The notes: generated by a model from the sequence alone, not told the origin. Shown: positions 8,422 to 35,756, counted from the stretch's first letter. The stretch is DNA of 64,000 bases from Flavobacteriales bacterium (GCA_023251075.1 JAHEZM010000009.1:25394-89393); one strand, 5' to 3'. Numbers and translations are program-made.

Positions 8422-9945
8422 ATGAGTGAGTTAAGAAAAATTGAAGGGGCCTTGATTTCTGTGTTTGATAAAGATAATCTGGAGCCTATTGTTCGTGAGT
8501 TAAATCGTTTGGGAGTAACCATTTATTCTACAGGCGGAACACAAACTTTTATTGAGGAATTAGGCATCTCTGTGGTGCCAGTAGAAGATCTTACTTCTTA
8601 TCCTTCAATTTTAGGTGGTAGAGTGAAAACTTTGCATCCTAAAGTTTTCGGTGGAATTTTGGGAAGAAGAGAGTTGCAATCTGATATCGCTCAGTTGGAG
8701 CAGTATGAGATTCCTCCTCTCGATTTAGTGATTGTTGATTTATATCCATTTGAAAAAACTGTAGCTTCAGGTGCGTCACATAGCGATATCATCGAGAAAA
8801 TTGACATTGGTGGAATTTCTTTGATTCGTGCAGCAGCTAAAAATCATAAAGATGTGGTGATCGTTCCGTCGAAAGAGCAATATCCAACTTTGCTTTCATT
8901 GCTGAAAGACAAACAAGGAAATACAGATTTGGAAGACCGTAAAGCTTTGGCTAAATCGGCTTTCAACGTTAGTTCTCATTACGACACTGCTATTTTCAAT
9001 TATTTCAACAACGATGAAGAGCCTGTGTTGAAACAGTCTATTCAATCTTCGAAAGTGTTGCGTTATGGTGAAAATCCTCACCAAAAAGGAATTTTCTATG
9101 GCAAGCTCGAAGACATGTTCGAGCAAGTGCAAGGAAAAGAATTATCGTACAACAACTTGTTAGATGTTGATGCTGCGGTGAATCTTATCGCAGAATTTAA
9201 AGACACTACTTTCGCTATCTTGAAACACAATAATGCTTGTGGTGTTGCTACTCGTTCCACTGTGTTAGAAGCATGGAAAGTAGCTTTAGCTGGCGACCCT
9301 GTTTCTGCTTTTGGAGGAGTGTTAATCACCAATGCTAAAATTGATAAAGCAAGTGCCGAGGAGATCAGTAAGCTTTTCTTCGAAGTGGTGATTGCTCCTG
9401 CTTATGAAGAGGCTGCTATAGAGATTTTGAAAGCGAAGAAAAACAGAATCATCTTAATTCAAAAGCCTGTTGCTTTAAGTAAAAAAACAGTGCGTACTGC
9501 ATTGAATGGTGTGTTGGAACAAGATAAAGATGCGGTGATGGAAAGTGCTGCAGACTTAACTTCCGTGACGGACAGAAAACCAACAGAACAAGAAATTGCC
9601 GACTTATTATTTGCCGCTAAAATTTGCAAACACACGAAATCGAATACTATCGTTTTCGCGAAAGACAATACTTTGATTTCAAGTGGTACCGGACAAACTT
9701 CACGTGTTGACGCCTTGCGTCAGGCGGTTGTTAAAGCCAATGAGTTTGGCTTCAGTTTGCAAGGTGCTGCAATGGCATCGGATGCTTTTTTCCCTTTTCC
9801 CGATTGTGTGGAATTGGCCAAAAATGCCGGAATTACTGCGGTAATTCAACCAGGAGGTTCTATAAAAGATCAAGAGTCTATCGACTACTGCAACAAAAAT
9901 GGAGTAGCGATGGTGATGACAGGAATTAGACATTTTAAACATTAA
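8422..9945 (+). CDS. purH: bifunctional AICAR formyltransferase / IMP cyclohydrolase
   Basis: 507 aa. The N-terminal MGS-like domain 'ALISVFDKDNLEPIVRELNRLGVTIYSTGGT' and the AICARFT core 'LRYGENPHQ' are diagnostic. Confidence 0.95.
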   Translation: MSELRKIEGALISVFDKDNLEPIVRELNRLGVTIYSTGGTQTFIEELGISVVPVEDLTSYPSILGGRVKTLHPKVFGGILGRRELQSDIAQLEQYEIPPLDLVIVDLYPFEKTVASGASHSDIIEKIDIGGISLIRAAAKNHKDVVIVPSKEQYPTLLSLLKDKQGNTDLEDRKALAKSAFNVSSHYDTAIFNYFNNDEEPVLKQSIQSSKVLRYGENPHQKGIFYGKLEDMFEQVQGKELSYNNLLDVDAAVNLIAEFKDTTFAILKHNNACGVATRSTVLEAWKVALAGDPVSAFGGVLITNAKIDKASAEEISKLFFEVVIAPAYEEAAIEILKAKKNRIILIQKPVALSKKTVRTALNGVLEQDKDAVMESAADLTSVTDRKPTEQEIADLLFAAKICKHTKSNTIVFAKDNTLISSGTGQTSRVDALRQAVVKANEFGFSLQGAAMASDAFFPFPDCVELAKNAGITAVIQPGGSIKDQESIDYCNKNGVAMVMTGIRHFKH

Positions 9946-9951
9946 AATACT

Positions 9952-10980
9952 ATGGGCTTATTTAGCTTTTTAACGCAAGAAATTGCCATCGACTTAGGTA
10001 CAGCTAACACGCTGATTATCGAAAACGATAAAGTGGTGGTAGATGAACCTTCGATCATTGCGATGAACAGAATTACGGGTGAGGTGCAGGCAATCGGAAA
10101 AAGAGCGATGCAAATGCATGGTAAAACGCACGAGAACATCAAAACTATTCGTCCGCTTAAAGATGGTGTAATTGCCGACTTTAAAGCTGCCGAAGAAATG
10201 ATTCGTGGCTTCATCAAAATGATCAATGTGAACAAACGTAAAATGTTTGGTCCGAGCAACATTCGTATGGTAATCTGTATTCCATCCGGTATCACCGAGG
10301 TGGAGCGCCGTGCAGTAAAAGATTCTGCCGAACATGCCGGAGCGAAAGAAGTGCGCATGATTCAAGAGCCTATGGCTGCTGCGATTGGTATTGGTATCGA
10401 CGTGGAAGAGCCAATGGGCAACATGGTAATTGACATCGGTGGTGGAACAAGCGAGATCGCCGTTATCGCTTTGGGCGGTATCGTTTGCGATAAATCTATT
10501 CGTGTTGCTGGAGATGAGTTTACACAAGACATTGAAGATTATATGCGTCGTCAGCACAACATTTTGGTGGGTGAAAGAACTGCCGAAAGAATTAAAATTG
10601 AAGTAGGTTCTGCTTTGCCTGAACTGGACAATCCGCCACCTGATTTTGCCGTTCACGGACGAGATTTAATGACTGGTATTCCAAAAGAAATTACCATTTC
10701 TTATTCTGAAATTGCACACTGTTTAGATAAATCGATTTCTAAAATTGAAGCTGCTATTTTGAGTGCTCTAGAGATGACTCCTCCTGAGCTTTCTGCCGAT
10801 ATTTACCGTACAGGTATTTACCTTGCAGGTGGTGGTTCTTTGTTGAGAGGATTGGATAAGCGTATTTCTAAAAAAACAAAATTACCTGTGCACGTTGCTG
10901 AAGATCCGCTAAGAGCGGTGGCAAGAGGTACAGGTATTGCTTTGAAAAATTTCGACAGATTCCCATTCTTGATAAAATAA
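9952..10980 (+). CDS. mreB: rod shape-determining actin homolog MreB
   Basis: 342 aa with 'IAIDLGTANTLI' (phosphate-1), 'DIGGGTSEIAVI' (phosphate-2), and 'LAGGGSLLRGLD'. Confidence 0.95.
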   Translation: MGLFSFLTQEIAIDLGTANTLIIENDKVVVDEPSIIAMNRITGEVQAIGKRAMQMHGKTHENIKTIRPLKDGVIADFKAAEEMIRGFIKMINVNKRKMFGPSNIRMVICIPSGITEVERRAVKDSAEHAGAKEVRMIQEPMAAAIGIGIDVEEPMGNMVIDIGGGTSEIAVIALGGIVCDKSIRVAGDEFTQDIEDYMRRQHNILVGERTAERIKIEVGSALPELDNPPPDFAVHGRDLMTGIPKEITISYSEIAHCLDKSISKIEAAILSALEMTPPELSADIYRTGIYLAGGGSLLRGLDKRISKKTKLPVHVAEDPLRAVARGTGIALKNFDRFPFLIK

Positions 10981-11004
10981 TGGAAAAGGAGAATTAAATG
11001 TTTC

Positions 11005-11841
11005 ATGAAGAACTTATTTGCACTTCTCTATAAAAATCATTTATTTCTCCTTTTTCTTTTGTTGGAGATTTTATCTTTAACGCTTGCCATTCAGCACAAC
11101 GCTTTTCAACGTTCCACTTTTATTCATTCGGCACATTCCATTAGTGGCAATACTTACGACGTGATTAATAATTTTTCGTCGTACATGGATTTAAAAGAAA
11201 AGAATGCATTGTTAGCCGATTCTTTAGCCAAAGTAAGAACACAAAGTATGTTTTCTTTTTTGAAGAGAGACACTAATTTTACTAAAATTAATGATACATT
11301 ATACCAGCAACAATATGTTTTTGTATCGGCAGAAGTACTTCATTTAACTACACACAAAATCAATAATTATATCACTTTAAATAAAGGGTCGCATGATGGA
11401 ATAAAAAATGGAATGGCAGTGATTGGCACGAATGGAATTGTAGGCGTGGTGAATGGAACTACCGATAATTATTGTTCTGTTTTATCAGTGCTACATAGCC
11501 AATCTAGTATTCCTTGTCGCTTGAAAAAAAGTAAAAATATTGGTTTTCTTATTTGGAATAATCGTGATTTCGATTACCGTCATTGTTTGCTGAAAGATAT
11601 TCCGCTAACTGCAAAAATTGCGAAAGGAGATACGGTAGTAACTACTGAAAATTCAAATATTTTTCCAGGTGGAATTCCCGTAGGAAAAGTAGTGGAAGCT
11701 CATTTGGCCGACGAGAGCCAGTCGCAAGATGTTACAGTAGAATTGTTTCTCGATTACAACATTTTAGATCACGCTTTTATTATTCGTGATTTAATGAAAG
11801 ACCAAAAAGATTCTCTTCAAATTAAGTTTCAAAATGATTGA
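11005..11841 (+). CDS. mreC: rod shape-determining protein MreC
   Basis: 278 aa with an N-terminal TM/coiled region followed by a beta-rich domain. Its position immediately after mreB is the conserved mreBCD order. Confidence 0.75.
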   Translation: MKNLFALLYKNHLFLLFLLLEILSLTLAIQHNAFQRSTFIHSAHSISGNTYDVINNFSSYMDLKEKNALLADSLAKVRTQSMFSFLKRDTNFTKINDTLYQQQYVFVSAEVLHLTTHKINNYITLNKGSHDGIKNGMAVIGTNGIVGVVNGTTDNYCSVLSVLHSQSSIPCRLKKSKNIGFLIWNNRDFDYRHCLLKDIPLTAKIAKGDTVVTTENSNIFPGGIPVGKVVEAHLADESQSQDVTVELFLDYNILDHAFIIRDLMKDQKDSLQIKFQND

Positions 11842-12349
11842 GCAATTACCACGATATGCGCTGATATTTTTTTTACTGGTGGTTTCACAGGTTCTGGTAT
11901 TTAATAATATTTATGTGGGTAATTTCCTGAATGTTTTTCCTTACGTTTTGTTTATTTTTATTTTACCTAGTAATGCCAATCGAGCACTACAATTGGTGCT
12001 CGCTTTTTTAATTGGAATCACCATTGATTTGTTTTCTGATTCTGGTGGAATTCACGCTGCTGCCTGTGTTCCTGTTGCCTACATTCGATCTTTTATTTTA
12101 AGAACTACTGCTTCAGGAGAAAGTACTAACGATACTTTTGTGCCTGATGTTTATTATTTTGGTTTGCGACGATATTTGACCTACGCGGGGATTTTGATGG
12201 TGTTGCACCACAGTATTTTATTTTTTTTAGAAGCGTTCGAATTAGGACATTTTTTTAGTACTATTTTAAAAATTGCAGGAAGCACTTTAATGACCTTGAC
12301 TTTTATTGTTTTGATTCAATATATTTTTATAAAAAATAAAGAAAAGTGA
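11834..12349 (+). CDS. mreD: rod shape-determining protein MreD (polytopic membrane protein)
   Basis: 171 aa, very hydrophobic (about 5 TM). It overlaps mreC by 8 bp and mrdA by 4 bp, in the conserved position. Confidence 0.6.
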   Translation: MIEQLPRYALIFFLLVVSQVLVFNNIYVGNFLNVFPYVLFIFILPSNANRALQLVLAFLIGITIDLFSDSGGIHAAACVPVAYIRSFILRTTASGESTNDTFVPDVYYFGLRRYLTYAGILMVLHHSILFFLEAFELGHFFSTILKIAGSTLMTLTFIVLIQYIFIKNKEK

Positions 12350-14133
12350 ATCAAAATAAAGACAGGCAATATGTTATTATTGGTATCTTTTCTACCATCG
12401 CCCTTATTTTCATTTTTCGTTTGCTTTATTTACAAGTTCTCAATCCCGATTTTCGTGAAGATGCCATCAATATGGGGCGCAAGGTGGTGATTGAATTTCC
12501 CATGCGCGGAACTATTTACGATCGCAACGGAAAGATTTTAGCGCACAATGAAATAGCTTACGATTTAGTGGTTCTGCCTAAAGAAGTAGAGATTGATACA
12601 TTGGCTTTTTGCAAGTTGTTGAATATTGATACGGCTGAATTTAATCGAAGAATGAAGATCGCAAAAACGTATCCTAATGCTTCTTATAAAGAATCGGTTT
12701 TTCAGGAATTAATTAGTGTGGAAGATTACGCAAAAATTGCCGAGCAATTGAATCTTTTCAAAGGATTTCACGGCCAGAGAAGAAATGTACGATCTTATCC
12801 AAAACCTATAGCAGCGCATCTTCTGGGATATATGCAAAAGGTGAGTCCCAATGATAAACATCGCGATAAATATTATGTGAATGATGATTATATCGGTCGC
12901 AGTGGATTGGAAATGTTTTACGAAAAAGAATTGCGCGGAATTAAAGGAATTAAAAATTGGAGACGCGATAGAAGTAACAATGTAAAAGGGAAATATTTAG
13001 ATGGTGAACTGGATCAGAAATCTTTTCCCGGTAAAGATTTACATACTTCCATCGATGCCGATGTGCAGGAATATGCCGAGCAATTGATGCATGGAAAACG
13101 AGGAAGCATCATTGCTATTGATCCCAGCAATGGAGAAATTATTTGTATGGTATCTGCCCCAACTTACAATCCTAATGATTTGGTAGGAAGATATTTCAGC
13201 AAGAATTACGATACTATTTTTAATCAGGAAGGCCAGCCCTTATTTTTTAGAAGTATAGCCGCTACGCAGCCACCAGGATCAATTGTGAAAACCATGCAAT
13301 CGGCTATCGCATTAGATATGGGCGTGGCCAATGCCAACACCAAATATCCGTGTAATAAATCTTTGGTGGGTTGTCATGATCATCCCGGACCATTGAATTT
13401 GCCGCAGTCGGTTCAGAGCTCTTGTAATCCCTATTATTACATGTTGGTGAAAAGTATTTTATACAAAGATGGATCTATAGAAACTGGATTGAACAATTGG
13501 GAAAGCATTGTTAGAACCTTTGGTTTTGGAAATCCTTTGGGCGTTGATTTACCGGGAGAAAAAGATGGCAATGTGCCTGATTCGCGTGAGTACAATGCTA
13601 CTTATGGTAAAGGGCATTGGAATTATAGAACGGTTTATTCATTGAGTATCGGACAAGGAGAATTTGCGCTTACGCCTCTGCAAATGGCGAATTTAGCAGT
13701 AATTATGGCGAACAAAGGAAAATATTATACCCCTCATATTGTAAGATCATTGGACGATTCGGTGCTTAATTACAAAGATTCAGTGCATATGGTAAGAGTT
13801 GATCCAAAGCATTTTGATGTGGTGCAGGATGGAATGCAATGGGTGATTGAAGAACCTGGAGGAACGGCCAGCAGAGCGCGAATTGATAGCTTGCATTATT
13901 GCGGAAAAACAGGAACTTCTCAAAATCCACATGGAGAAGATCATTCGGTTTTTATTGCTTTTGCACCACGTGAAAATCCTAAAATTGCTATTTCTGTTTA
14001 TATTGAAAATGCAGGAAAGGGAGGTGTTTGGGCAGCACCTATCGCCAGTTTGGTAATTGAAAAATACTTGCGCGGAACCATCAGCAGAAAAGAGTTGGAA
14101 GAAACAATGCTGAAGGGGGTGATTAAGTATTGA
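12346..14133 (+). CDS. mrdA: penicillin-binding protein 2 (elongasome peptidoglycan D,D-transpeptidase)
   Basis: 595 aa with an N-terminal TM, 'SIVKT' as the SxxK active-site box (ATQPPGSIVKTM), 'SCN' for SxN, and 'KTGTS' for KTG. Confidence 0.9.
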   Translation: MNQNKDRQYVIIGIFSTIALIFIFRLLYLQVLNPDFREDAINMGRKVVIEFPMRGTIYDRNGKILAHNEIAYDLVVLPKEVEIDTLAFCKLLNIDTAEFNRRMKIAKTYPNASYKESVFQELISVEDYAKIAEQLNLFKGFHGQRRNVRSYPKPIAAHLLGYMQKVSPNDKHRDKYYVNDDYIGRSGLEMFYEKELRGIKGIKNWRRDRSNNVKGKYLDGELDQKSFPGKDLHTSIDADVQEYAEQLMHGKRGSIIAIDPSNGEIICMVSAPTYNPNDLVGRYFSKNYDTIFNQEGQPLFFRSIAATQPPGSIVKTMQSAIALDMGVANANTKYPCNKSLVGCHDHPGPLNLPQSVQSSCNPYYYMLVKSILYKDGSIETGLNNWESIVRTFGFGNPLGVDLPGEKDGNVPDSREYNATYGKGHWNYRTVYSLSIGQGEFALTPLQMANLAVIMANKGKYYTPHIVRSLDDSVLNYKDSVHMVRVDPKHFDVVQDGMQWVIEEPGGTASRARIDSLHYCGKTGTSQNPHGEDHSVFIAFAPRENPKIAISVYIENAGKGGVWAAPIASLVIEKYLRGTISRKELEETMLKGVIKY

Positions 14134-14153
14134 TATTCTTTATACAGGACGGT

Positions 14154-14245
14154 AGTTCCTTCGTGCCTCAGGATGACAACCACACCCAAACATAGAGTGA
14201 GAGTGAGTTTTGAGAGCGATTGTCATCCTGAGGCACGAAGGAACT
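14154..14245. repeat. palindromic intergenic repeat element, copy 1 (25-bp perfect inverted arms, 42-nt spacer)
   Basis: Left arm 14154-14178 is 'AGTTCCTTCGTGCCTCAGGATGACA'. Right arm 14221-14245 is its exact reverse complement. A near-identical element occurs at 29726-29807. It lies between convergent mrdA (+) and the SGNH-MBOAT gene (-). Confidence 0.85.
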
Positions 14246-14259
14246 AATGTCCTACAAAT

Positions 14260-17106
14260 TTAAAACTGAAAATAAATAAACGGTTGTATTCCTGCTGTTT
14301 TAAATTGAAAAATAATCACAATCATTATTGCAGTTACTATACTTAAAAATGGAACGTTTAATTTGCCTAAGCTCATTTCAATTTTTCTTTCCCATACCTG
14401 TGGGAAAGCGTGTGCCAGGAAACCTAATAGAATGATGGCAAAAATACCTTTGTAACTTTCAATGTAGGTTATGATTAAAGCAAGTGGTGCAATCGTTGCA
14501 TCTTTCGCTCCTGAGAAATTTTCGAAAATTTGATTGAACATATCGCCCATCATACTCATATCTTTTACTCTAAAAAGTATCCAGCAAAAGGCAACAAAAT
14601 GGAAAGTTAAAATGAGTCCGATAAACTTAGGCATCGTCCAACTAAATTTATCTTTCCACCATCTTTCCACAGCCAATGCACCGCCATGTAATCCGCCCCA
14701 AAGAATAAATTTAAAAGCGGCACCGTGCCATAATCCGCCAATGAGCATCGTGAGCAAAAGGTTGATATAAGTTCGCGCTTTCCCAAAACGATTTCCTCCT
14801 AAGGGGATGTATAAATAATCTTTCAGCCAGGTGGATAAAGAGATGTGCCACCGCTTCCAAAATTCTGTGATGCTGTGTGCTAAATATGGCGCGTTGAAAT
14901 TGAGCGGCAAAGTAAATCCCAGAAGCAAAGCAATACCTATAGCCATGTCGCTGTATCCTGAAAAATCACAATAAATTTGAATCGCATAACCATAAATACT
15001 CATCAGGTTTTCAAAGCCCGAATAACTCAATGGATTGTCGAAAACCCGATCTACAAAATTCACCGAAATAAAATCCGATATCACTACTTTTTTAAAGAGT
15101 CCGGTTAAAATCAGGAACATTGCCTTTCCAAAATCTTCTTGAGTTAGGCTGTATTTTTTTTTGATCTGTGGAAGGAAATCGGCAGCACGCACAATAGGTC
15201 CAGCAACCAGTTGCGGAAAGAAGGTGATGAAAAAACCAAAGTCCCAGATGTCTTCAGTAGGTTCAATTTTTCCGTAATAAATATCGATGGTATAGCTTAA
15301 GGTTTGAAAGGTGAAGAAAGAAATTCCTACAGGGAGAATTATTTTATCGATTGCTAGTGAGGTGCCGAAAACAGAATTCGATGCAATAGAGAAGAAATTG
15401 ACGGCTTTAAAATCAGTTTGAAAGATAAGGTTGATGTTGTCGATGATGAACTGAGAATATTTGAAAAAAGCGAGTAATCCTATATTGATAAATAAGCTGA
15501 TGAAGAGCATAGTTCTCTTCGTGGATTTTTTTTTTGAGTTGAATATTTTGAGGGATAGATAGTAATCGAGAATAGTAGAAAAAACGAGGAGGGCGAAAAA
15601 GAACCCTCCAGATTTGTAATAAAAAAATAAGCTAAAAACACTGAGGTAGAGAGCTCGTAATTTGAATTTGTTGTAGATAAAAACGTAGCCAATCATTAGT
15701 ATTAGAAAGAAAATCCAGAAACTATAATTACTGAATATCATAGGATCTTTCGGATCGGTATGAAAAATATCTTTGATCAACACCCAGAAAAAATTTTCTT
15801 TTTGATCATCAATCTTATGCACTTTCCATCCTTTGGTGTGATTGTCGTAACCTTCTATCAATGCATTGTAAAAAATGCTGCCCATAAAATGATACCCTTT
15901 TTCAGAAAGATGTACTTTATCGGCATTTCCCAATCCGTTCGCCAGCCATTGTTCAATGGAGTTTACACCGCCCATTATTTTAAGGAAATCCCAAATGGCA
16001 CAATTGTGTTTTTTAGCCAGAGCGATAATTGTTTTTCGTGCCAGTAAACTTCCTTTGATGGTAACTTTTCTATTTCTTTTGCAATCGCCCGGAGTAATTA
16101 AAACAATAGATGCTGTGGGCATTTTATTGCGAATGGCAGTGAGTAAACTATCGTAATGTTTGTAGAAAATAGAATCGTTAAAGTTGGTGGAATAAATGTC
16201 GTTGGTTCCTAAGGATAATACAATCAAATCGGGATTGTAATACTTTACCTGCTTCACCAAATTTTTGCAGGAAACAAAGGATCCCACTGCAGCACCATTA
16301 ACACCTACTTCACTGCAAACTATTCCCGGACGAGAGTTTTCGAGAATCAACCCTTGTAAAGAAAAAGGAATTTCTGATTGATTTGTTTTGTAGAAATTAA
16401 CGGTAATGGTATCGGTGAGTTTATTGAAAACAAAAGTTTGTATTCCTAAAATACTATCGTTGGTGGAAGAGATGAGGTAAGCCCCTTTTGATGAAACGGT
16501 GATGTTTCTTTTTCCTTTTGTTGGGTCGTATATAACAGAAATTTTATCGTGGTAATAAGTTTCAAAAGTTTTGTTGTTGCAATATACTTTTACAAAAAGA
16601 GAATCTTCGGGAGAAGAAACATTGATGCCTGAAAGTCCCCAATTACAAGCGGTATCAGGATAAATACATTTTTGAGCAGTCCATTTTCCATTGAATCGAA
16701 TACCATAATTTATGGGGCCATTGCTTTTCGCCATAGAATAGGGAAAAACAAAACCGCGTGCTGTGGTTCCGCAATCAAATTTGTTGTGAAAAAGCTCTCT
16801 GGTTTTACCTGTCCAGTAACCTGCTTGCACATGTGAATCACCAATGAACAATACTTTTACTTGTCCGGTTCTTTGCGATTCATAAGTCCATAATTTATTG
16901 TAGAAATTCTCTAAAGTGGTGCTGTCTTTGACGAGGATTTTATTCGATGCATAATCAATAAAGGGGTATTGTTGAATCGTATCAATAGTGTGTTGGGAGA
17001 ATAAGTTAAAAGTTAAAAGTAAAAAGCCAAAAAACACCCCAAGGGATTTTAGCTTATTGCTTTTAACTTTTAACTTTTTACTGTATTTCCAATTCTTTAT
17101 AATCAT
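14260..17106 (-). CDS. fusion protein with an N-terminal periplasmic SGNH/GDSL-like (AlgX/AlgJ/PatB-like) domain and a C-terminal MBOAT membrane O-acyltransferase (AlgI/PatA-like)
   Basis: 948 aa. The N-terminal half has 'VLFIGDSHVQAGYWTG' (SGNH block I, GDSx), 'LSLGTNDIYS' (block III, GxND), and 'DKVHLSEKGYHF' (block V, DxxH). The C-terminal ~480 aa is polytopic with MBOAT hallmarks: 'FWKRWHISLSTWLKDYLYIPLGG' and 'LWHGAAFKFILWG' (conserved His). Confidence 0.8.
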   Translation of the reverse strand: MIIKNWKYSKKLKVKSNKLKSLGVFFGFLLLTFNLFSQHTIDTIQQYPFIDYASNKILVKDSTTLENFYNKLWTYESQRTGQVKVLFIGDSHVQAGYWTGKTRELFHNKFDCGTTARGFVFPYSMAKSNGPINYGIRFNGKWTAQKCIYPDTACNWGLSGINVSSPEDSLFVKVYCNNKTFETYYHDKISVIYDPTKGKRNITVSSKGAYLISSTNDSILGIQTFVFNKLTDTITVNFYKTNQSEIPFSLQGLILENSRPGIVCSEVGVNGAAVGSFVSCKNLVKQVKYYNPDLIVLSLGTNDIYSTNFNDSIFYKHYDSLLTAIRNKMPTASIVLITPGDCKRNRKVTIKGSLLARKTIIALAKKHNCAIWDFLKIMGGVNSIEQWLANGLGNADKVHLSEKGYHFMGSIFYNALIEGYDNHTKGWKVHKIDDQKENFFWVLIKDIFHTDPKDPMIFSNYSFWIFFLILMIGYVFIYNKFKLRALYLSVFSLFFYYKSGGFFFALLVFSTILDYYLSLKIFNSKKKSTKRTMLFISLFINIGLLAFFKYSQFIIDNINLIFQTDFKAVNFFSIASNSVFGTSLAIDKIILPVGISFFTFQTLSYTIDIYYGKIEPTEDIWDFGFFITFFPQLVAGPIVRAADFLPQIKKKYSLTQEDFGKAMFLILTGLFKKVVISDFISVNFVDRVFDNPLSYSGFENLMSIYGYAIQIYCDFSGYSDMAIGIALLLGFTLPLNFNAPYLAHSITEFWKRWHISLSTWLKDYLYIPLGGNRFGKARTYINLLLTMLIGGLWHGAAFKFILWGGLHGGALAVERWWKDKFSWTMPKFIGLILTFHFVAFCWILFRVKDMSMMGDMFNQIFENFSGAKDATIAPLALIITYIESYKGIFAIILLGFLAHAFPQVWERKIEMSLGKLNVPFLSIVTAIMIVIIFQFKTAGIQPFIYFQF

Positions 17107-18526
17107 AATAATCTTTTAGGATAGCGTTGCCCAATTTATCACCTACAACATTCGCGCCTCTCCAATTAAAGTGTGTATAATCTTTTTCTGCTAAAGAAGG
17201 ATTTGCTTCCACCCATTGAGCCATTGAATTTTTACCACCCATTACCTCATACAAATCCCAGAAGGCACAACCAGTAAGGCGAGCAGCTTCTTTTTGTGCG
17301 TCTCTAATTTTTTCAATGTTGCCGTAAGATACAAATTCTGTTTCTTCTTTTTTACACATATCCGATACGCCCACAATGAGGATTGAAGCGTTGGGAGCCA
17401 TTTGTTTCAGATAGTTGATTTGTGATACAATCATGCGCATGTAAAAGTCGTAATTGTTCACTTCATTCGGCACCACATTTACTCCAAATTGATAAATAAT
17501 TAATCCTACATTGAGTTGTGAAATTTGTGCTTTCAATGTTTGTTTATTCATCTTAGTGAAGTCGGTTCCAGAGCTTCCGCGAAGGGAAATATTATCCACT
17601 GCGATACCACTTTTGCAATCCAAACTAACACCATAAATATCAGTTAGGTTATTTCCTGAAAAGGAGAATTGTATTTCTTTATTTTGAAAACCATTGTAGT
17701 TCCATGTTTGTTGGAAAGTTCCTGAATCCAGAGGCAAATTTGAATTGTGAATGATGTTGGTGTCACTACTTAGTTTACATAAAACAGGGTCTCCCTGATG
17801 GTGGTACATCAAAGATATTTGTTCGAATTTTTGTAGTTTGCTGTTGCTGGCTTTATTGGCTTTTATGTTAATGGTAGCCCCGGTATTTTTATTGTCGTTT
17901 ACCCAATGATAGTAAGAACCTAAAAATCCGTAATCGTTATGAGGAGGAGTATTTTCAGAGCGAACAACGCTGTATTTAGTCCAATTTTTTGATGCTGTTC
18001 TTTGTACATTTTTTCTTCCGTATCCGGGATCGCTCAACGGAATATAACCCACTCCGCAGCCACCAAATTTATTTTGTAACAAATCTCTCAACACCCCGCT
18101 AATTCTATCGCCTTCAATTTGTGAATCACCAAAATGCAGTACGCGTACTAATTTTCCATCTTCAATGCTTTCCAGTTTTTTATAGAAAAGCTCCATTGCA
18201 TTTTCCAAATCATTGGGCTGAATGATTTTTTCTGTAGCCGACACCATGATTTCTTCTTGAGGAATATCGCTATGATTAACAGAATCTTCAGAATAAGTGT
18301 TGTTTTTGTAGGTGCTTTTAATCTTTTCCACCACTACCGATTGTTCTGTTTTTTCTTTTCTTTTAAAATATTCTTTTGGGTTAGGTACCTTCACCACTAC
18401 ATCTTTGCCAATAGCAATTCCTTTTTCGGGGAAAGCCAGCCAAATACCAAATAAAACGGCATTTACCAGAAGTATCAACGCTAATATTTTTTTTGGATTC
18501 CCAAAGTCCGATTGCTGCATATCCAC
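17078..18526 (-). CDS. membrane-anchored SGNH/GDSL-like hydrolase or O-acetyltransferase (AlgX/PatB-like partner)
   Basis: 482 aa with an N-terminal TM. It carries 'VLHFGDSQIEGDRISG' (block I) and 'EKDYTHFNWRGANVVG' (DxxH-like block V). It overlaps the fusion gene by 29 bp, so the two are likely co-translated. Confidence 0.65.
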   Translation of the reverse strand: MDMQQSDFGNPKKILALILLVNAVLFGIWLAFPEKGIAIGKDVVVKVPNPKEYFKRKEKTEQSVVVEKIKSTYKNNTYSEDSVNHSDIPQEEIMVSATEKIIQPNDLENAMELFYKKLESIEDGKLVRVLHFGDSQIEGDRISGVLRDLLQNKFGGCGVGYIPLSDPGYGRKNVQRTASKNWTKYSVVRSENTPPHNDYGFLGSYYHWVNDNKNTGATINIKANKASNSKLQKFEQISLMYHHQGDPVLCKLSSDTNIIHNSNLPLDSGTFQQTWNYNGFQNKEIQFSFSGNNLTDIYGVSLDCKSGIAVDNISLRGSSGTDFTKMNKQTLKAQISQLNVGLIIYQFGVNVVPNEVNNYDFYMRMIVSQINYLKQMAPNASILIVGVSDMCKKEETEFVSYGNIEKIRDAQKEAARLTGCAFWDLYEVMGGKNSMAQWVEANPSLAEKDYTHFNWRGANVVGDKLGNAILKDYYDYKELEIQ

Positions 18527-18529
18527 TAA

Positions 18530-19450
18530 TTATTGAACCTTGAATTCGTACACCTTTTTGCGATCATCGCGAAAGAGTTGTGCTGCTTCTTTGGGAAGAT
18601 ATATTGCACGACTACTGCCAGCAGGAATAGCGTTGCCGTTTACTTGTGCGTTGAGCTTAGCCAAATCTTCTTTACTCACTTTTAATGCTCCTGCCATTTG
18701 AGACAGTGAGGTAGCCTGAACATGAACAGTATCAATTTGATCAAATTTATATCGGGGAGTAGCAGGGTTAATTCCAAAGAGTGAATAGTAAGTCATTACA
18801 TAACTTACAGCAAAGAATTTCGCCATATACTCTTGTGCGAAAGCAGGTAGATGAGTACGTATGGCCCAATAATCTTTTTTACCACCACTTTTTGCAATTA
18901 CTTTATCTAAAGTTCCGTGGCCTATTTGATAGGCTGTTATTGCCAATAACCAATCACCATACATTTTATACAGTTTTGTGAAATAAGCACAAACGGCTTG
19001 AGTGCTTTGAATGGGGTCTCTGCGGTTATCAATTAACCCATTGTTTTCCAATTTCATTATTTTACCTGTGCCATTGGTGATCTGCCACAAGCCCGCTGGA
19101 CCTCCTGATTTGCCTGCATGAGGATTAACACCCGACTCCATTACAGTGATGTATTTCAGTTCATCGGGTAATTTGTTTTTGGCCAGTTCCGCTTCAATAA
19201 GAGGGAAATACAATTGTCCGTTGGCTAAACAATTTGCGATCAGTTTTTTGTAGTTGCCATACTGCGTAATTTTAGCCTTAACCAAATCATTCAAAATAAA
19301 GTGAATGGCAGAAGCAGAATCTAATTTCTGCATGCGTTGTTTGGTGCTGGAAGAATCAGAGTTGGCAAAAGAGAAGGAAGGGAATAAAAGAGCGATTACC
19401 AATCCGAGAAATTGGAAGCAATAGCACAATTTTGGCGGGAAGCCCGTCAT
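18530..19450 (-). CDS. lytic murein transglycosylase (SLT domain)
   Basis: 306 aa with a signal peptide. 'ITVMESGVNPHAGKSGGPAGLWQI' matches the SLT catalytic ES...AxGLMQ motif. 'AYQIGHGTLDK' is also present. Confidence 0.8.
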   Translation of the reverse strand: MTGFPPKLCYCFQFLGLVIALLFPSFSFANSDSSSTKQRMQKLDSASAIHFILNDLVKAKITQYGNYKKLIANCLANGQLYFPLIEAELAKNKLPDELKYITVMESGVNPHAGKSGGPAGLWQITNGTGKIMKLENNGLIDNRRDPIQSTQAVCAYFTKLYKMYGDWLLAITAYQIGHGTLDKVIAKSGGKKDYWAIRTHLPAFAQEYMAKFFAVSYVMTYYSLFGINPATPRYKFDQIDTVHVQATSLSQMAGALKVSKEDLAKLNAQVNGNAIPAGSSRAIYLPKEAAQLFRDDRKKVYEFKVQ

Positions 19451-19479: not shown

Positions 19480-19503
19480 AAAAAAGGCCGCCGTGAGGCA
19501 GCC
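19480..19503 (-). terminator. rho-independent terminator of tatA
   Basis: The minus strand reads GGCTGCC-tcac-GGCGGCC followed by TTTTTT. This is a 7-bp GC-rich stem, 4-nt loop and U-tract, 6 nt after the tatA stop. Confidence 0.7.
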
Positions 19504-19508
19504 CTATG

Positions 19509-19685
19509 TTAATCTTTTTTTTGCTCTACGTTAGTAGCATCGGAAGTATTTCCGTCTTTAGCATCTTTAAATTCTTTGATGCCTTTTCCTAAACCTTTCA
19601 TTAGTTCAGGTATTTTTTTACCACCAAAAAGTAATAGTACTATTACCAAAATGATTAGGATTTCCATCCCGCCTAATTTTCCCAT
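19509..19685 (-). CDS. tatA: twin-arginine translocase subunit TatA/E (58 aa; below the ORF-track size cutoff)
   Basis: Manual translation gives '[58 protein letters not shown]'. It has a TM helix, the hinge 'FGGKK(I)P', and the amphipathic 'LGKGIKEFK' segment typical of TatA. Confidence 0.8.
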
Positions 19686-19809: not shown

Positions 19810-21018
19810 CTACTTACTCAACCACAATTGAGGGTCCATCACCACATTAGCCTTCCAGATCTCGAAGTGGAGTTCGGTTTTTCCATCTTCTGAATTGGTT
19901 TTAACTATACCAATTTCGCCTTTGGTTTCTACTTCATCGCCTTTCTTAACAGAAACCACATCGAGGTTTGAATACATAGTATAGTATTCGCCATGTTTAA
20001 TGAGCACAGCGTATTTATCGCCGGGTAATACTAAAACGGCAGTAACAGTTCCTTTGAAAATAGCACGTGCTTTGGTTCCTTTAGGCACTACCATATCAAT
20101 TCCGTTGTTGTGAATCATAACGGTTTCTAAAACAGGATGTTTGTGATCGCCAAAAGTTTGAGATACGGCTACATATTTTTCTACCGGCCACGGAAATTTT
20201 TTCTGATTTCCTGCGAAGTTTTGCGACAGCTCTTTTTCCTTGGGAGTAAGCGTAACTGCTCCGCCTGTTTTCGTGCTTGCCTTTTTCTGTTCTTCGGCAA
20301 TAATTCTTGAAATTTCAGCATCTCTTTTATCGGCTTCTTTTTTCTTCTCCTTAATTTCTTTTTTGATTTCTTCCTGTTTCTTTTTCAGTTCATCGTAAAG
20401 CGCTTCTTTTTCTTTTTTCTCGCTGGATAGTTTTTGTTTTTCCTGGTTTTCAGTGCTTAACAGTGCTTGTTTTCCGGCTTTAATTTCTTCTAATTTTACA
20501 ACCTCTCCTTTAATTTGTTCACGTTTTGAAGCAATGAGTTCTACTTGTTTCTGACGAAATTTATTGAGATCGCGTAAGTATTTCCAACGTTTGTAAGCAG
20601 TATTGAAACTATTGGCAGAAAGAATGAAAAGTAATTTATCGGTTGATTTTCTTGTTTTGTAAGCATAGCGCAACATTCGTGTGTATTGCACTTTAAGGTT
20701 GTTGAGATCTTTTTCAAGTTTGCGTACTACACTTTGCTGAGCATCGATATCACGGTTAACCAACCGGATTTCGTGATTGTAGTTATTGATTAGTTTTTCT
20801 CTGGCCTCAATTTTTTTACTGGTGATGAACATCGCCAGTTGTGTTTTTTGCTTATCGAGCTTAATCGTCTTTTCGTAGTCTTTTAGTTTTTTTAATTCCT
20901 CTTTTGTTTCATTATTTTTTTTATTCAAATCGCTTTGCTTGTCTTTTGTTTGCGCAAAAGTCAGCAAAGAAATAAGTACAAAAAGCAATGTAAGTTTACC
21001 TAAGTTTTTCATATCCAT
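19810..21018 (-). CDS. M23-family peptidoglycan metalloendopeptidase with a long N-terminal coiled coil (EnvC-like)
   Basis: 402 aa with a signal peptide. About 250 aa is K/E-rich coiled coil. The C-terminal LytM domain contains 'HNGIDMVVPKGT' and 'GDKYAVLIKHGEYYTMYSNLD'. Confidence 0.85.
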   Translation of the reverse strand: MDMKNLGKLTLLFVLISLLTFAQTKDKQSDLNKKNNETKEELKKLKDYEKTIKLDKQKTQLAMFITSKKIEAREKLINNYNHEIRLVNRDIDAQQSVVRKLEKDLNNLKVQYTRMLRYAYKTRKSTDKLLFILSANSFNTAYKRWKYLRDLNKFRQKQVELIASKREQIKGEVVKLEEIKAGKQALLSTENQEKQKLSSEKKEKEALYDELKKKQEEIKKEIKEKKKEADKRDAEISRIIAEEQKKASTKTGGAVTLTPKEKELSQNFAGNQKKFPWPVEKYVAVSQTFGDHKHPVLETVMIHNNGIDMVVPKGTKARAIFKGTVTAVLVLPGDKYAVLIKHGEYYTMYSNLDVVSVKKGDEVETKGEIGIVKTNSEDGKTELHFEIWKANVVMDPQLWLSK

Positions 21019-21817
21019 CAGGTATTATAATTTCAGTATCTAAACTAGTTTCTTGCGGTTCGGCTTTGGTGAAATCGAGGTGAATAATTTTTTCTTTTAA
21101 GTTTTTATCTTTCATGATCACCTGGGTGATTTTAGGGAATTTATATCCATCGTTGCTCCGGCTGATATAGCTGATATCCAAAATTACTTTTTTCAAGGGT
21201 TCCTGATAGTAAACTCTTTGCACATTGGAGCTGTCGCCATAAATCCAAATGGCATGTAAAGGTTGGCTAGTATTGGCAAAACTATTGTTTTGAATAGCAC
21301 TAGTGAGTAAAGCTTTTTCGGGGGTACAATACAATAGGTTAGGTGGCTCTACATACGATTGATAAACAGAATCATGAGCCATTGGGTAAAATTCGCCGAT
21401 GATAATGGATTGTACCAAAGCATAACTGATATTGGTTTTTAGCGAATCGTTAATGCGAGCGTAAGTACCACTGAAATACCTTCCGCTTCCGGTTTGATGG
21501 TCGATAATAATTACAGTGTCTTTGGTAAATAATAATTTAGCTACAGGAAAGCCCATCACGGATGCTGAAATCCATATAACACTGTCTTTTTTCATTCGTA
21601 AATTTGCATTCAATGAAAGAGGAATATCACTGCCTTCCATTGAAATATTTATTTTTCCTTTTAGCCAGGTAAATTGTGGATTATAGCTTTTCGCTTTTAA
21701 GGAAAGAGTATTTTCCTGATGCGTTTTGGTGCGTGTTTGTTTTCCTTTTTTCTTCGCCGTGCAGGCAAAGAAAGTGAGACTTAATACGATCATTAATATT
21801 TGCAACACAGCTCTCAT
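20996..21817 (-). CDS. DUF4292-like outer-membrane lipoprotein (LolA-like fold family); hypothetical
   Basis: 273 aa with lipobox 'LTFFAC|TAKKKG'. It sits in the conserved Bacteroidota dut-TPR-DUF4292-M23 block. Confidence 0.45.
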   Translation of the reverse strand: MRAVLQILMIVLSLTFFACTAKKKGKQTRTKTHQENTLSLKAKSYNPQFTWLKGKINISMEGSDIPLSLNANLRMKKDSVIWISASVMGFPVAKLLFTKDTVIIIDHQTGSGRYFSGTYARINDSLKTNISYALVQSIIIGEFYPMAHDSVYQSYVEPPNLLYCTPEKALLTSAIQNNSFANTSQPLHAIWIYGDSSNVQRVYYQEPLKKVILDISYISRSNDGYKFPKITQVIMKDKNLKEKIIHLDFTKAEPQETSLDTEIIIPDGYEKLR

Positions 21818-23535
21818 TCTACCACTTGTTTTCTTTGAATTTTCAAATCAATTTTATCACTTACATCACCTGCCGATTTTGCTTTTTTCCAATACTCCAG
21901 AGCTTTTTCAGTTTTTCCAGAGCGCGAGTAGGCATCGCCTAAATGTTCTAAGATAGTGCCGTTTTCCGCACCACCATGCGCTTCTGCTTTGTGCAGCCAT
22001 TCCAATGCATCTTCATATTTTTTTTGCTCATACAAGATCCATCCGTAAGTGTCTTCAAAAGAGGCATTGTCGGGAGAAAGTTCATTCGATTTTTTCGACA
22101 TATCGGCAGCCTTGTCCAAGGTTTCTTTTCTTAAAGACAAATAGTAAGAATAGTTGTTAAGCACATAAACATTTTTAGGATCGAGTTTTAAAGAAAGTTC
22201 GTAGTTTTCATCGGATTTAGGATAGTTTTTAATTTCATTGTAAATGTCTCCCAGGTAAGAATAAAATTGCGATTTCAATGCGTCGTTTCCACTCACTAAA
22301 TCCACTCCTCCTGAGAAGCCTTCAATGGCTTCTTCATGTTTTTTAAGTTGCATGGCTGAAATTCCTCTGTACCAGTACAATTCAGATTGTATGGGGAAGT
22401 ATTCAATAGCCTTACCAGCATCGTCGAAAACGTTTTGATATTCTTTCAGTTCTGTTTCTACTTCCAGCAATTGGCGCCATATTAGAAATTTATCTGATTC
22501 CATTTCCAATGCCTTTTTGTATTCTCTTTTTGCTTCACTCCATTTGCCATCTCTGCTGTAGAAATCACCACAAATGGTGTAGCTTTTAGCATCATCGGGA
22601 TGGCGATTTTTTGTAATCTCCAACAGATGGAAAACCTCTTTATTTAAAACAGAATCATTTTTGGAAGAGCGGTAATACTTTATCAGGATATCCACTTTAG
22701 TATCGATGCCCATCTCGGGGTTTTCGAAAGCCAATCCTAATTCATGAAATGCTTTTTCTATTTCTTTTTTCTGGTTGTAATAATCGAATAACGACAAGCG
22801 TGCATTGTAATTATTGGGATTGATGTTGAGTACTTCCTGGTATAAAATAGCAGCGTCATCCTCTTTGTTGATAGAATGATAATAATCGGCCAATTTGATT
22901 TTGTGTTTAAGCTCTTTGGAATCGTGCGCAATCAATTTTTTTAATTCATTAATAGCTTGTTCGCGTTTATTTAATCTATCGTACAGCGCGAACTTCTGCA
23001 TAGAGATATTTTCTTTTATTCCTGTTTTTTCTTCTGCTTTATCTAAAATATCAATGGCCTCCTGATATTTATTTTGATCGGTGTAAACTTCAGAAAGATC
23101 GAAATAGTAATCGATGGAAGTAGGGAATAATTTTATCAATTTTTGAAAGGTAGCTTCACATTCACTGTACTGTTGTGTTTCGCGTGTTAAATCAGCGTAG
23201 AACAGAAGTATCCATTTATTTTCACCATCTAGCTGAACTGCTTTTTTTGCGTTTGCTAATGCCCCTTTGTACTGACGGGTTGCCTCTTGCATCCCCGCTA
23301 TTTCATAGTAGCAACTAGAGCAATCGGGTTTAAGTTTAATAGCTTTCTCAAATTCAGAGAAGGCTTCATGGTATTTGCCTAAGATTTTATAGCGATTGGC
23401 TTCTACAAAATGAAACTGAAATTTCATTTCGTCATCATCGTCAACCCTATTTCCAGTGGGGGTCTTAAAAGTATGATTGCTTTTGCAGGCAGCAAAAGCA
23501 ATCAGTACAGTTAATATCATCAGACGATAATTCAT
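21814..23535 (-). CDS. tetratricopeptide-repeat lipoprotein
   Basis: 573 aa with lipobox 'AFAAC|KSN'. Numerous TPR units are present (W-LG-Y / A-F--A-P-N patterns throughout). Confidence 0.8.
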   Translation of the reverse strand: MNYRLMILTVLIAFAACKSNHTFKTPTGNRVDDDDEMKFQFHFVEANRYKILGKYHEAFSEFEKAIKLKPDCSSCYYEIAGMQEATRQYKGALANAKKAVQLDGENKWILLFYADLTRETQQYSECEATFQKLIKLFPTSIDYYFDLSEVYTDQNKYQEAIDILDKAEEKTGIKENISMQKFALYDRLNKREQAINELKKLIAHDSKELKHKIKLADYYHSINKEDDAAILYQEVLNINPNNYNARLSLFDYYNQKKEIEKAFHELGLAFENPEMGIDTKVDILIKYYRSSKNDSVLNKEVFHLLEITKNRHPDDAKSYTICGDFYSRDGKWSEAKREYKKALEMESDKFLIWRQLLEVETELKEYQNVFDDAGKAIEYFPIQSELYWYRGISAMQLKKHEEAIEGFSGGVDLVSGNDALKSQFYSYLGDIYNEIKNYPKSDENYELSLKLDPKNVYVLNNYSYYLSLRKETLDKAADMSKKSNELSPDNASFEDTYGWILYEQKKYEDALEWLHKAEAHGGAENGTILEHLGDAYSRSGKTEKALEYWKKAKSAGDVSDKIDLKIQRKQVVE

Positions 23536-29725: not shown

Positions 29726-29807
29726 CAATAGTTCCTTCGTGCCTCAGGATGACAACCACAGTACAGACAAGTTTTGTATGTCATCCTGAGGCACGAAGGA
29801 ACTATTG
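29726..29807. repeat. palindromic intergenic repeat element, copy 2 (29-bp perfect inverted arms, 24-nt spacer)
   Basis: The left arm 'CAATAGTTCCTTCGTGCCTCAGGATGACA' (29726-29754) and right arm 29779-29807 are exact reverse complements. The core is identical to copy 1 at 14154-14245. It lies between the ROK kinase stop and the enoyl-CoA hydratase start. Confidence 0.85.
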
Positions 29808-35041: not shown

Positions 35042-35068
35042 ATTATTCTAAATATTTTTTGTTTTGAA

Positions 35069-35746: not shown

Positions 35747-35756
35747 AATTTTTTGA

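Follow-up and report, generated by a model that had tools for sequence, protein, structure and literature searches.

A three-gene locus in the metagenome-assembled genome of an uncultured Flavobacteriales bacterium (GCA_023251075.1, JAHEZM010000009.1:25394-89393) raises the question of which polymer its products acetylate and which of its proteins passes the acetyl group on. The locus occupies positions 14260 to 19450 of the 64,000-nucleotide stretch analysed here (the window) and encodes an SLT-domain lytic transglycosylase, a membrane-anchored SGNH protein and a 948-aa protein that joins a second SGNH domain to an MBOAT acyltransferase. Peptidoglycan O-acetylation governs autolysins and lysozyme resistance. 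Its Gram-negative mechanism, in which the acetyl-tyrosine of PatA feeds PatB, was established only in 2025, in Proteobacteria (PMC12148441). Our analysis suggests that the operon, including the mechanism proposed below, is probably the form that the O-acetylpeptidoglycan (OAP) cluster takes in Bacteroidota (Fibrobacteres-Chlorobi-Bacteroidetes, or FCB, group). Both of its SGNH modules are homologues of the esterase Ape1, and one of them is fused to the MBOAT.

Domain architecture of the operon

The three genes are co-directional on the minus strand. The open reading frames (ORFs) that a sequence-only reading of the window had proposed are all present, with the fusion, the second SGNH protein, the SLT gene and a 29-bp overlap between the second SGNH gene and the fusion gene. 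In the features below, pLDDT is the predicted local distance difference test of the AlphaFold2 (AF2) models.

18530-19450 (-): SLT lytic transglycosylase gene, first gene of the operon, 306 aa
17078-18526 (-): S-type (Ape1b-like) SGNH gene, membrane-anchored product, 482/480 aa
14260-17106 (-): SGNH::MBOAT fusion gene, 948 aa; signal peptide, N-type SGNH domain (Ape1c lineage), short linker and PatA-like MBOAT
16993-17106 (-): signal peptide or anchor of the fusion, aa 1-38, ...LGVFFGFLLLTFNLFSQ; hydrophobic segment from aa 19
15832-16989 (-): Ape1-like SGNH domain of the fusion, aa 40-425
16339-16704 (-): CBM35-like beta-sandwich insert, aa 135-256, between SGNH blocks I and II
15772-15831 (-): linker of the fusion, aa 426-445, GWKVHKIDDQKENFFWVLIK; pLDDT below 50 at aa 429-437
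14263-15771 (-): PatA-like MBOAT domain, aa 446-948
14263-14280 (-): C-terminal acyl-shuttle hexapeptide FIYFQF (FxYxxF), with the Tyr945 codon at 14272-14274

Both SGNH modules are full-length homologues of Ape1, a peptidoglycan-specific O-acetylpeptidoglycan esterase, inserted beta-sandwich included. Each has the hallmarks of the Ape1 family, namely blocks I, II, III and V, the catalytic triad, the oxyanion hole, the insert, the fold and full-length similarity.

The SGNH half of the fusion (N-type) matches the Pfam families Lipase_GDSL (3.8e-13) and GDSL_2 (3e-12) (aa 267-410). It displays the blocks GDSH (aa 89-92), GVNGA (268-272), GTND (300-303) and DKVH (396-399), with the catalytic residues Ser91 (codon 16834-16836), Gly271, Asn302, Asp396 and His399. 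All of 25 fusions compared have G89, D90, S91, N302, D396 and H399, and the N-type retains every one of the Ape1 signatures GDSH, G-x-N-G-A, G-T-N-[DE] and D-x-V-H. With phmmer, aa 40-415 align to residues 9-367 of NmApe1 (PDB 4K3U/4K40/4K7J; E 7.6e-19), and a Foldseek search with the SGNH half of the model retrieves NmApe1 (E 1.6e-17, TMt 0.83) and CjApe1 (TMt 0.76-0.79). The AF2 model of the fusion has a pLDDT of 79.6 and a predicted template modelling score (pTM) of 0.54; in it the insert at aa 135-256 is all-beta, and it aligns with the inserted domain of Ape1. The first 38 residues are little conserved (pLDDT below 50), and unfused N-type relatives have typical cleavable-looking signal peptides in their place.

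The S-type protein is a paralogue of this domain, about 25% identical to it and of the same fold; its copy in the public databases begins at an ATG two codons in and has 480 aa. A conserved transmembrane (TM) anchor (aa 11-31; pLDDT 82-85) is followed by a low-confidence linker of about 75 residues (aa ~34-110; pLDDT below 50 over 54-88) and the Ape1-fold SGNH domain, with the beta-sandwich inserted at aa ~174-303. This PatB-like layout is found in the S-type only. The motifs are GDSQ...DYTHF, the catalytic residues Ser135 (codon 18122-18124), Asn350, Asp449 and His452, and the oxyanion-hole glycine G317; G133, D134, S135, Q136, R316, G317, S318, N350, D449 and H452 are invariant in 25 homologues. 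The protein matches GDSL_2 at 1.9e-07; its similarity to Ape1 (4K3U) is 2.4e-14 when the sequence alone is searched and 7.2e-28 when a profile of its family is used. Its AF2 model (pLDDT 80, pTM 0.77) retrieves NmApe1 (E 2.7e-22, TMt 0.81) and CjApe1 (TMt 0.73-0.76) in Foldseek. The block II glycine is retained in both paralogues, in 34 of 34 N-type proteins (G-x-N-G-A) and, as the aligned glycine of R-G-S-S-G, in 41 of 42 S-type proteins, a comparison that depends on alignments, of which the S-type one is the less certain.

These results replace the AlgX/PatB-like label that the fused SGNH domain had been given by the sequence-only reading, since among structures only Ape1 matches, both in sequence (the 4K3U values above) and in fold (Foldseek TM ~0.8). 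The SGNH proteins of the window gave no Pfam match to DUF459 at E<=0.01 and none to ALGX (PF16822), and PatB structures were absent from the PDB sequence matches at E<=10; AlgX and AlgJ were not among the PDB sequence matches either. The Foldseek PDB top 50 held no PatB, AlgX, AlgJ, WssI or PatB1 structure for either model, and no OatA structure for that of the fusion. Of the profiles with which the domains were to be mapped, the MBOAT profile PF03062 was found, and the boundaries were set; PF16822 had no match.

The C-terminal half of the fusion belongs, as judged by its motifs, to the PatA-like, acyl-shuttle class of MBOAT proteins. Simple hydropathy places about 8 hydrophobic segments in it, and the AF2 model shows a larger number of helices. 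It matches PF03062 with an E of 4.1e-31 (aa 625-846) and positions 3-376 of the 380 of the DltB profile TIGR04091 (2.5e-48), with a score of 165 against a cutoff of 375. The similarity to DltB 8JEM is 1.7e-24, and Foldseek gives TMt 0.67-0.72 for DltB. The MBOAT motifs are WKRWH (His754) and WHG (His794, codon 14725-14727), the latter aligning to the WHG histidine of DltB; H754, H794 and H807 are invariant in 25 fusions. So is the C-terminus, P942-F-I-Y-F-x-F948, and the same ending is found in nearly all the 80 related MBOAT ORFs. The pLDDT of the FIYFQF tail is below 50, so it is likely flexible. In PatA, the tyrosine of FxYxxF is auto-acetylated from acetyl-CoA, and an acetyl-Tyr peptide donates to the SGNH partner; the C-terminus of NgPatA (N. 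gonorrhoeae) reads FIYANF (PMC12148441).

The linker is flanked by the conserved N-type C-terminus (..A[FL]L..YD..) and the MBOAT N-terminal motif (F.Y...P.IF[ST]..FW.FF), both intact, and the junction thus reads as a plain end-to-end join of two complete proteins with about 20 residues between them. Since the N-terminus of PatA is predicted to be periplasmic (PMC12148441), fusion of a secreted domain at this end is topologically legal. A signal-peptide-bearing SGNH domain is joined about 20 aa ahead of the first MBOAT helix, and fusions at this end involve two independent types of SGNH domain, from which we infer that the MBOAT N-terminus of the fusion is periplasmic (N-out).

Distribution of the cluster and setting of the operon

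A profile of the fusion was searched against species-representative genomes, and at least 80 loci among the matches listed were parsed ORF by ORF (L numbers denote single loci). The closest relatives of the window lie outside these 80 and were found separately, via contigs encoding similar proteins. Separate S-type, N-type and MBOAT genes, in this order, occur in 28 of the loci listed, which belong to Bacteroidota (Flavobacterium, Formosa, Alistipes, Bacteroidaceae), Cloacimonas, Chlorobiota and Fibrobacter. In these three-gene clusters the N-type gene, which is the fused one in the window, is always the one adjoining the MBOAT gene, and unfused N-type and MBOAT genes often overlap by a few bases. 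The catalytic residues are invariant in both clades; the Bacteroidaceae N-type orthologues (L021, L022) are without the beta-sandwich insert, as in Ape1c. Nine listed loci have only S-type and MBOAT, and L011 only N-type and MBOAT, with gcvP upstream. Stand-alone N::MBOAT fusions without an S-type gene within 5-8 kb were found in L087, L089 and L090, and S-type::MBOAT fusions in L004, L014 and the separately recovered L086. Alphaproteobacterial loci pair one Ape1-like SGNH protein with the MBOAT, with no PatB detected beside them.

Fused proteins were retrieved 78 times, in two paralogous types: 46 N::MBOAT and 32 S-type/other::MBOAT. All 78 end in FIY(F/L)xF, and the 46 N::MBOAT fusions (883-1054 aa, 42-77% identity) share the same architecture and align continuously across the junction. 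The identical 948-aa protein is present in public collections, and about 30 of the best 150 cluster representatives (50% identity) of a 1.84-billion-protein library cover both domains. An assembly or frameshift joining of two genes is therefore scarcely credible as the origin of the 948-aa ORF: most relatives do have two separate, often overlapping genes that a single indel could merge, but the 46 N::MBOAT fusions are independent, come from many samples and assemblers and extend down to 42% identity. The architecture had been called unusual on two counts. Duplication of the SGNH component is standard in Bacteroidetes (the 28 listed loci, and ape1b + ape1c + pat in PMC1199599); the fusion is uncommon, yet it recurs.

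Two further observations concern the relatives. In L087 (4218-7994) and L090 (1229-5026) the gene immediately before the fusion encodes a regulator of some 1260 aa (Y_Y_Y/Reg_prop, guanylate-cyclase and HD domains); in L090 it overlaps the fusion gene by 26 bp. This is a possible sign that control of the acetyltransferase is linked to cyclic nucleotides in that lineage. Loci outside the FCB group (L035, L058, L073 and L076; Pseudomonadota, Myxococcota and unclassified) combine a related MBOAT with two divergent Ape1-like SGNH genes, which lie downstream of the MBOAT gene, one of them on the opposite strand, in L058, L073 and L076, and both upstream in L035.

The lytic transglycosylase that the sequence-only reading had linked to the module is a real and recurrent partner. 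The protein encoded in the window matches PF01464 at E 4.5e-22 and is MltD-like (NF008050 at 4.8e-32, under the family cutoff), with a catalytic-type "MES" glutamate motif (ITVMESGVNP), a signal peptide and no LysM repeats. SLT and/or LysM genes lie directly upstream in about one-third of the related loci; SLT(+LysM) homologues stand 5' of the SGNH gene in L001, L002, L004, L009, L010, L013-L015, L019, L023, L028, L040, L045, L082 and L086. In a Pfam census of 167 flanking ORFs, the commonest families among the 79 upstream ORFs, from ~43 loci, were LysM (15) and SLT (13), mostly in one MltD-like protein adjoining the S-type gene. The 88 downstream ORFs showed no enriched family, with GT2 found only twice, and the census contained no glycosyltransferase, Wza or Wzy clusters. 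Moreover, some N-type-domain relatives bear LysM domains of their own (P0044-46). That a lytic transglycosylase and an Ape protein can be partners has a precedent in Neisseria, where LtgA and Ape1 form a complex and stimulate each other (PMC7083599). A DUF5683 gene also recurs upstream, in L086 and five other loci (6 of the 79 ORFs); in L086 (5816-6430) its place is between parB and the SLT/LysM gene at the head of the cluster.

On either side of the three genes, the window contains the following features.

19810-23535 (-): one block of a TPR protein, LolB1 (NF053559 at 1.8e-33) and an M23 peptidase/EnvC-like protein
19509-19685 (-): tatA, 58 aa, PF02416 at 1.6e-17; precedes the SLT gene
19505-19484 (-): terminator-like hairpin after tatA, 9 pairs, 6 GC, plus T-run
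14146-14253 (no strand): palindrome resembling a repetitive extragenic palindromic (REP) element, in the junction where mrdA and the fusion gene converge; outside the module
12346-14133 (+): mrdA, complete, TIGR03423 at 1.6e-136; no rodA after it
8422-14133 (+): purH-mreB-mreC-mreD-mrdA, convergent on the fusion gene

Because tatA and the terminator-like hairpin precede the SLT gene, the SLT, S-type and fusion genes are probably one operon, with 19484-19685 as its probable upstream boundary; the hairpin is weak boundary evidence, as terminator-like sites are not enriched over shuffles.

At the other end, the absence of rodA from the window and the palindrome at the mrdA junction, both pointed out by the sequence-only reading, were seen. 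Every multi-TM ORF of the 64-kb window was scanned and proved to be something other than SEDS/RodA, and rodA must be located elsewhere in the genome. The 126 bp between mrdA and the fusion gene are taken up by the palindrome, which is near-perfect (RNA fold -61.8 kcal/mol, z = -9.7) and has exact 25-nt arms, TTGTCATCCTGAGGCACGAAGGAAC, at 14155-14179 and 14220-14244. A second inverted pair of arms lies at 29731-29802, which makes 4 arm copies in the window versus 0 expected by chance, and the palindrome is therefore regarded as a dispersed REP-like element; at the junction it is likely a bidirectional terminator or hairpin.

That reading had also taken the placement beside mreBCD-mrdA, where rodA is expected, as an argument for a cell-wall role, and this argument fails on synteny. 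The fusion relatives with 77% and 69% identity keep the TPR-LolB1-M23-TatA-SLT-SGNH-fusion block and have downstream either a hypothetical gene, bactofilin and the ATP synthase operon or a response regulator; a 49%-identical relative has neither block. None of the ~45 FCB-type loci among the matches listed has mre genes in its flanks. A tie of the module to the elongasome, with the fusion occupying or replacing the rodA position, is accordingly very improbable. The fusion gene does converge on mrdA with no rodA within 64 kb, and in L073 and L074, two loci from outside Bacteroidota, mreB/mreC/mrdA lie 7-8 kb from a related MBOAT gene. Against this, mrdA and the fusion gene are convergent, not co-transcribed, and parted by the dispersed palindrome, and in the 77% and 69% relatives ATP synthase/bactofilin or response regulator genes stand in the place of mrdA. 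Synteny in close and distant relatives rules out the link, and the mrdA junction, the missing rodA and the palindrome mark a local rearrangement breakpoint without functional signal.

Elsewhere in the window, three tandem AIM24-family paralogues of 224, 225 and 219 aa (34367-36416, minus strand; each PF01987 at <1e-57) adjoin an M48 peptidase and a histidine kinase of 1205 aa (30789-34406) that has 12 hydrophobic segments. A second MBOAT system lies at 60856-63176 (plus strand). Its 459-aa MBOAT (PF03062 at 1.2e-27) has the tail FIYARF, which conforms to FxYxxF, and WRRWN instead of WRRWH as first histidine motif; the gene overlaps that of a downstream TM-anchored protein of 313-340 aa (62235-63176), which gave no match in Pfam, NCBIfam or PDB and may represent a different, undescribed partner family for another envelope polymer.

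Substrate and route of the acetyl group

An acetylation module of MBOAT and SGNH proteins, as the sequence-only reading had argued, is borne out by these data, with peptidoglycan as the best-supported substrate from the Ape1 homology and the recurrent SLT/LysM genes upstream; it is very probable that the module acts on this polymer. Enrichment for capsule or exopolysaccharide loci among homologues, which that reading had held to count against its proposal, was not seen in the census of 167 flanking ORFs.

Acetylation of an exopolysaccharide, capsule, lipopolysaccharide or glycoprotein glycan instead, in the manner of AlgI/J/X or WssH/I, appears improbable. It draws on the fact that the same FxYxxF-tail MBOAT and SGNH pairs serve alginate, cellulose and secondary wall polymers (PMC12148441), and on database annotations of relatives that read "AlgI" or "DltB". 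A Wzx-like flippase (Polysacc_synt) and a sugar nucleotidyltransferase (NTP-transferase) lie 4-7 kb upstream of the operon, in the window and in the 69%-identical relative, and weigh against a peptidoglycan substrate. However, dut, the TPR, lolB1 and M23 genes, tatA and the terminator-like site stand between the flippase and the operon. The absence of AlgX/ALGX and DUF459 Pfam matches, the close structures, which are only the peptidoglycan esterases NmApe1 and CjApe1, and the upstream enrichment for peptidoglycan-specific SLT and LysM, with no glycosyltransferase, Wza or Wzy clusters, all speak for the cell wall. Moreover, the second, different MBOAT pair (60856-63176) is available for another polymer.

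In the mechanism that we propose, the PatA-like MBOAT half would take acetyl from cytoplasmic acetyl-CoA, and a conserved histidine (H794/H754) would load it onto Tyr945 of the flexible periplasmic FIYFQF tail. The catalytic serine of an Ape1-fold SGNH domain would receive the acetyl group and hand it to the C6 hydroxyl of N-acetylmuramic acid in peptidoglycan. Because O-acetyl groups block lytic transglycosylases, the co-transcribed SLT enzyme would be the endogenous activity gated by this modification. The two Ape1-fold paralogues would replace the PatB-type (DUF459) transferase, which the cluster lacks: the S-type would stay separate and membrane-anchored, and the N-type, normally a secreted periplasmic protein, would be fused to the MBOAT, at its periplasmic N-terminus, through a link of about 20 residues. 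In the reading that we prefer, the fused domain would accept acetyl in cis, from Tyr945 to Ser91, as part of a single-chain O-acetyltransferase, which would leave to the S-type protein the part of the de-O-acetylase or of another transferase fed by the MBOAT.

From sequence, we somewhat favor a role of the fused N-type domain as acetyl acceptor or transferase and consider it unlikely to be an esterase. In L087, L089, L090 and L011, with no S-type gene nearby, the SGNH protein that works with the MBOAT must be the N-type. It also speaks for this role that the N-type gene always adjoins the MBOAT gene. Since both paralogues occur as sole and as fused partners, the most economical view is that, in this lineage, the tail of the MBOAT can pass acetyl to proteins of the Ape1 fold. 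More tentatively, the O-acetyltransferase step of the whole FCB group may be carried out by Ape1-fold SGNH domains, and the fusions (N::MBOAT and S::MBOAT) may be self-contained single-chain enzymes, the MBOAT counterpart of OatA.

Several observations weigh against the explanation proposed here, including an acceptor role of the fused domain. This domain keeps all Ape1 esterase signatures, including the block II glycine that is replaced in PatB and OatA (PMC12148441), and NmApe1 groups with the N clade in a rough neighbour-joining tree, so homology taken by itself would make it an esterase. The constant partner, which hardly any cluster lacks, is the S-type, and it is the sole or fused SGNH protein in 12 loci; it is fused to the MBOAT in L004, L014 and L086 and has the PatB-like TM-linker-SGNH layout. 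With a pTM of 0.54 for the fusion, the docking geometry of the SGNH and MBOAT halves is not confidently predicted, and the link of the Bacteroides cluster to O-acetylated peptidoglycan is correlative (PMC1199599). The mirror-tree correlation with the MBOAT does not discriminate between the paralogues (N-type, r = 0.86; S-type, r = 0.84). As a test of roles, the rule that transferases replace the block II glycine by Ser/Asn was set aside as uninformative, both paralogues keeping the glycine.

The same observations can be read as an exchange of roles, in which the S-type protein would be the PatB-equivalent transferase docking on the MBOAT and the fused N-type domain the Ape1-equivalent esterase, an eraser tethered beside the writer. 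The fusion would then have arisen because adjacent, translationally coupled genes of compatible topology lost a stop codon, which suits the end-to-end junction of two complete proteins and the frequent overlap of the unfused genes. The composition would parallel patA-patB-ape1: the N-type retains the Ape1 catalytic and substrate-binding signatures and groups with NmApe1, and its unfused members have cleavable-looking signal peptides like soluble Ape1, whereas the S-type has diverged (GDSQ, an invariant Arg before the block II glycine, G-x-N and D-[YF]-[TI]-H), has a TM segment and long linker like PatB and serves as sole or fused partner in those 12 loci. We nevertheless regard this exchange as doubtful. 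It would leave L087, L089, L090 and L011 with a donor and an eraser but no writer nearby, and an esterase about 20 residues from the acetyl-Tyr shuttle would risk a futile cycle that burns acetyl-CoA. The alphaproteobacterial loci that pair a single Ape1-like SGNH protein with an MBOAT also count against it, since Ape1-fold proteins are apparently able to serve as MBOAT partners.

The consequences extend beyond this locus. The Bacteroidota cluster, which includes that of gut Bacteroides with heavily O-acetylated walls, lacks PatB and has two Ape1-like paralogues. As genetic evidence, the natural SGNH::MBOAT chains point directly to the periplasmic, N-terminal side of the MBOAT as the place where its SGNH partner works, and the fusion is a stoichiometric, covalently linked complex suited to cryo-electron microscopy and reconstitution. 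With the separate proteins, yields of PatA are low and transfer from PatA to PatB has not been reconstituted (PMC12148441). The labels that the fusions now carry ("AlgI", "DltB/lysophospholipase", "hypothetical") are misleading. If true, the cis reading would break the dichotomy between "MBOAT + separate SGNH" and "AT3-SGNH fusion", and the Ape1 "esterase" scaffold, with its canonical block II glycine and carbohydrate-binding module (CBM), would be able to act as a transferase.

Comparison with known systems

The closest known system is the OAP cluster that Weadge, Pfeffer and Clarke described in 2005 in B. thetaiotaomicron, B. fragilis and P. gingivalis, with the order ape1b, ape1c, pat (PMC1199599). 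In Ape1b, but not in Ape1c, motif I is followed by an insert of about 100 aa, and O-acetylation of peptidoglycan in the two Bacteroides species is 27% and 69% (PMC1199599). The description was purely bioinformatic and called both SGNH proteins esterases, which left no transferase in the cluster (PMC1199599). The locus in the window agrees with it in the three components, in their order and common strand and in phylum, and the host genera of the described cluster have O-acetylated peptidoglycan. Because the gene order matches and the N-type proteins of L021 and L022 are the insert-less Ape1c, we regard it as the known OAP cluster with the ape1c-lineage gene fused to pat. It differs in that the middle gene keeps the insert and is fused in frame to the MBOAT, and in that an SLT gene leads the operon.

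With the PatA/PatB/Ape1 system of Neisseria and Campylobacter (4K3U, 8GKD, 7TJB) the locus shares the MBOAT histidine and FxYxxF tail (FIYANF versus FIYFQF), SGNH partners with a Ser-His-Asp triad, the Ape1 fold with its inserted CBM and a functional tie to lytic transglycosylases. However, the cluster is without a PatB/DUF459-type SGNH protein. Both of its SGNH modules are of the Ape1 type, with the block II glycine, which in PatB is replaced by Ser/Asn, and a CBM-like beta-sandwich insert. The MBOAT carries one of them, covalently fused, at its N-terminus, and the gene order is reversed, with the SGNH genes 5' of the MBOAT.

Like OatA, the Gram-positive AT3-SGNH enzyme, the fusion combines in one chain a membrane acetyl translocator with an acetyl-Tyr intermediate and an extracytoplasmic SGNH domain. 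Its membrane domain is an MBOAT, unrelated to AT3, and its SGNH domain is N-terminal rather than C-terminal and of the Ape1/GDSL_2 type with a beta-sandwich insert.

The AlgI/AlgJ/AlgX and WssH/WssI systems also combine an MBOAT with periplasmic SGNH-like proteins. In the former, one MBOAT is accompanied by an anchored AlgJ and a soluble, CBM-bearing AlgX, a pair that by analogy might point to a relay or two transferases in the window cluster. In contrast to these systems, the locus has no AlgX/AlgJ-family match in sequence or fold and no polysaccharide synthase or export genes in the operon, whose neighbors are peptidoglycan enzymes. DltB of the DltB/DltX/DltD system is the closest solved MBOAT structure (8JEM, 6BUG), and the FxYxxF shuttle is common to both. 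Here, however, the shuttle motif is on extra C-terminal helices of the MBOAT and not on a DltX microprotein, DltA and DltC genes are absent, the organism is Gram-negative, and the TIGR04091 score stays far below the cutoff of that family.

In the literature searched, MBOAT systems are described with a separate SGNH protein and fusions are reserved for AT3-SGNH enzymes (PMC12148441, PMC9558356, PMC9487903); neither MBOAT-SGNH enzymes in a single chain nor O-acetylation by Ape1-fold proteins without PatB are described there. What is uncommon in this locus is the fusion of an Ape1-like domain to the membrane MBOAT that carries the acetyl group; the rest is the cluster type known since 2005.

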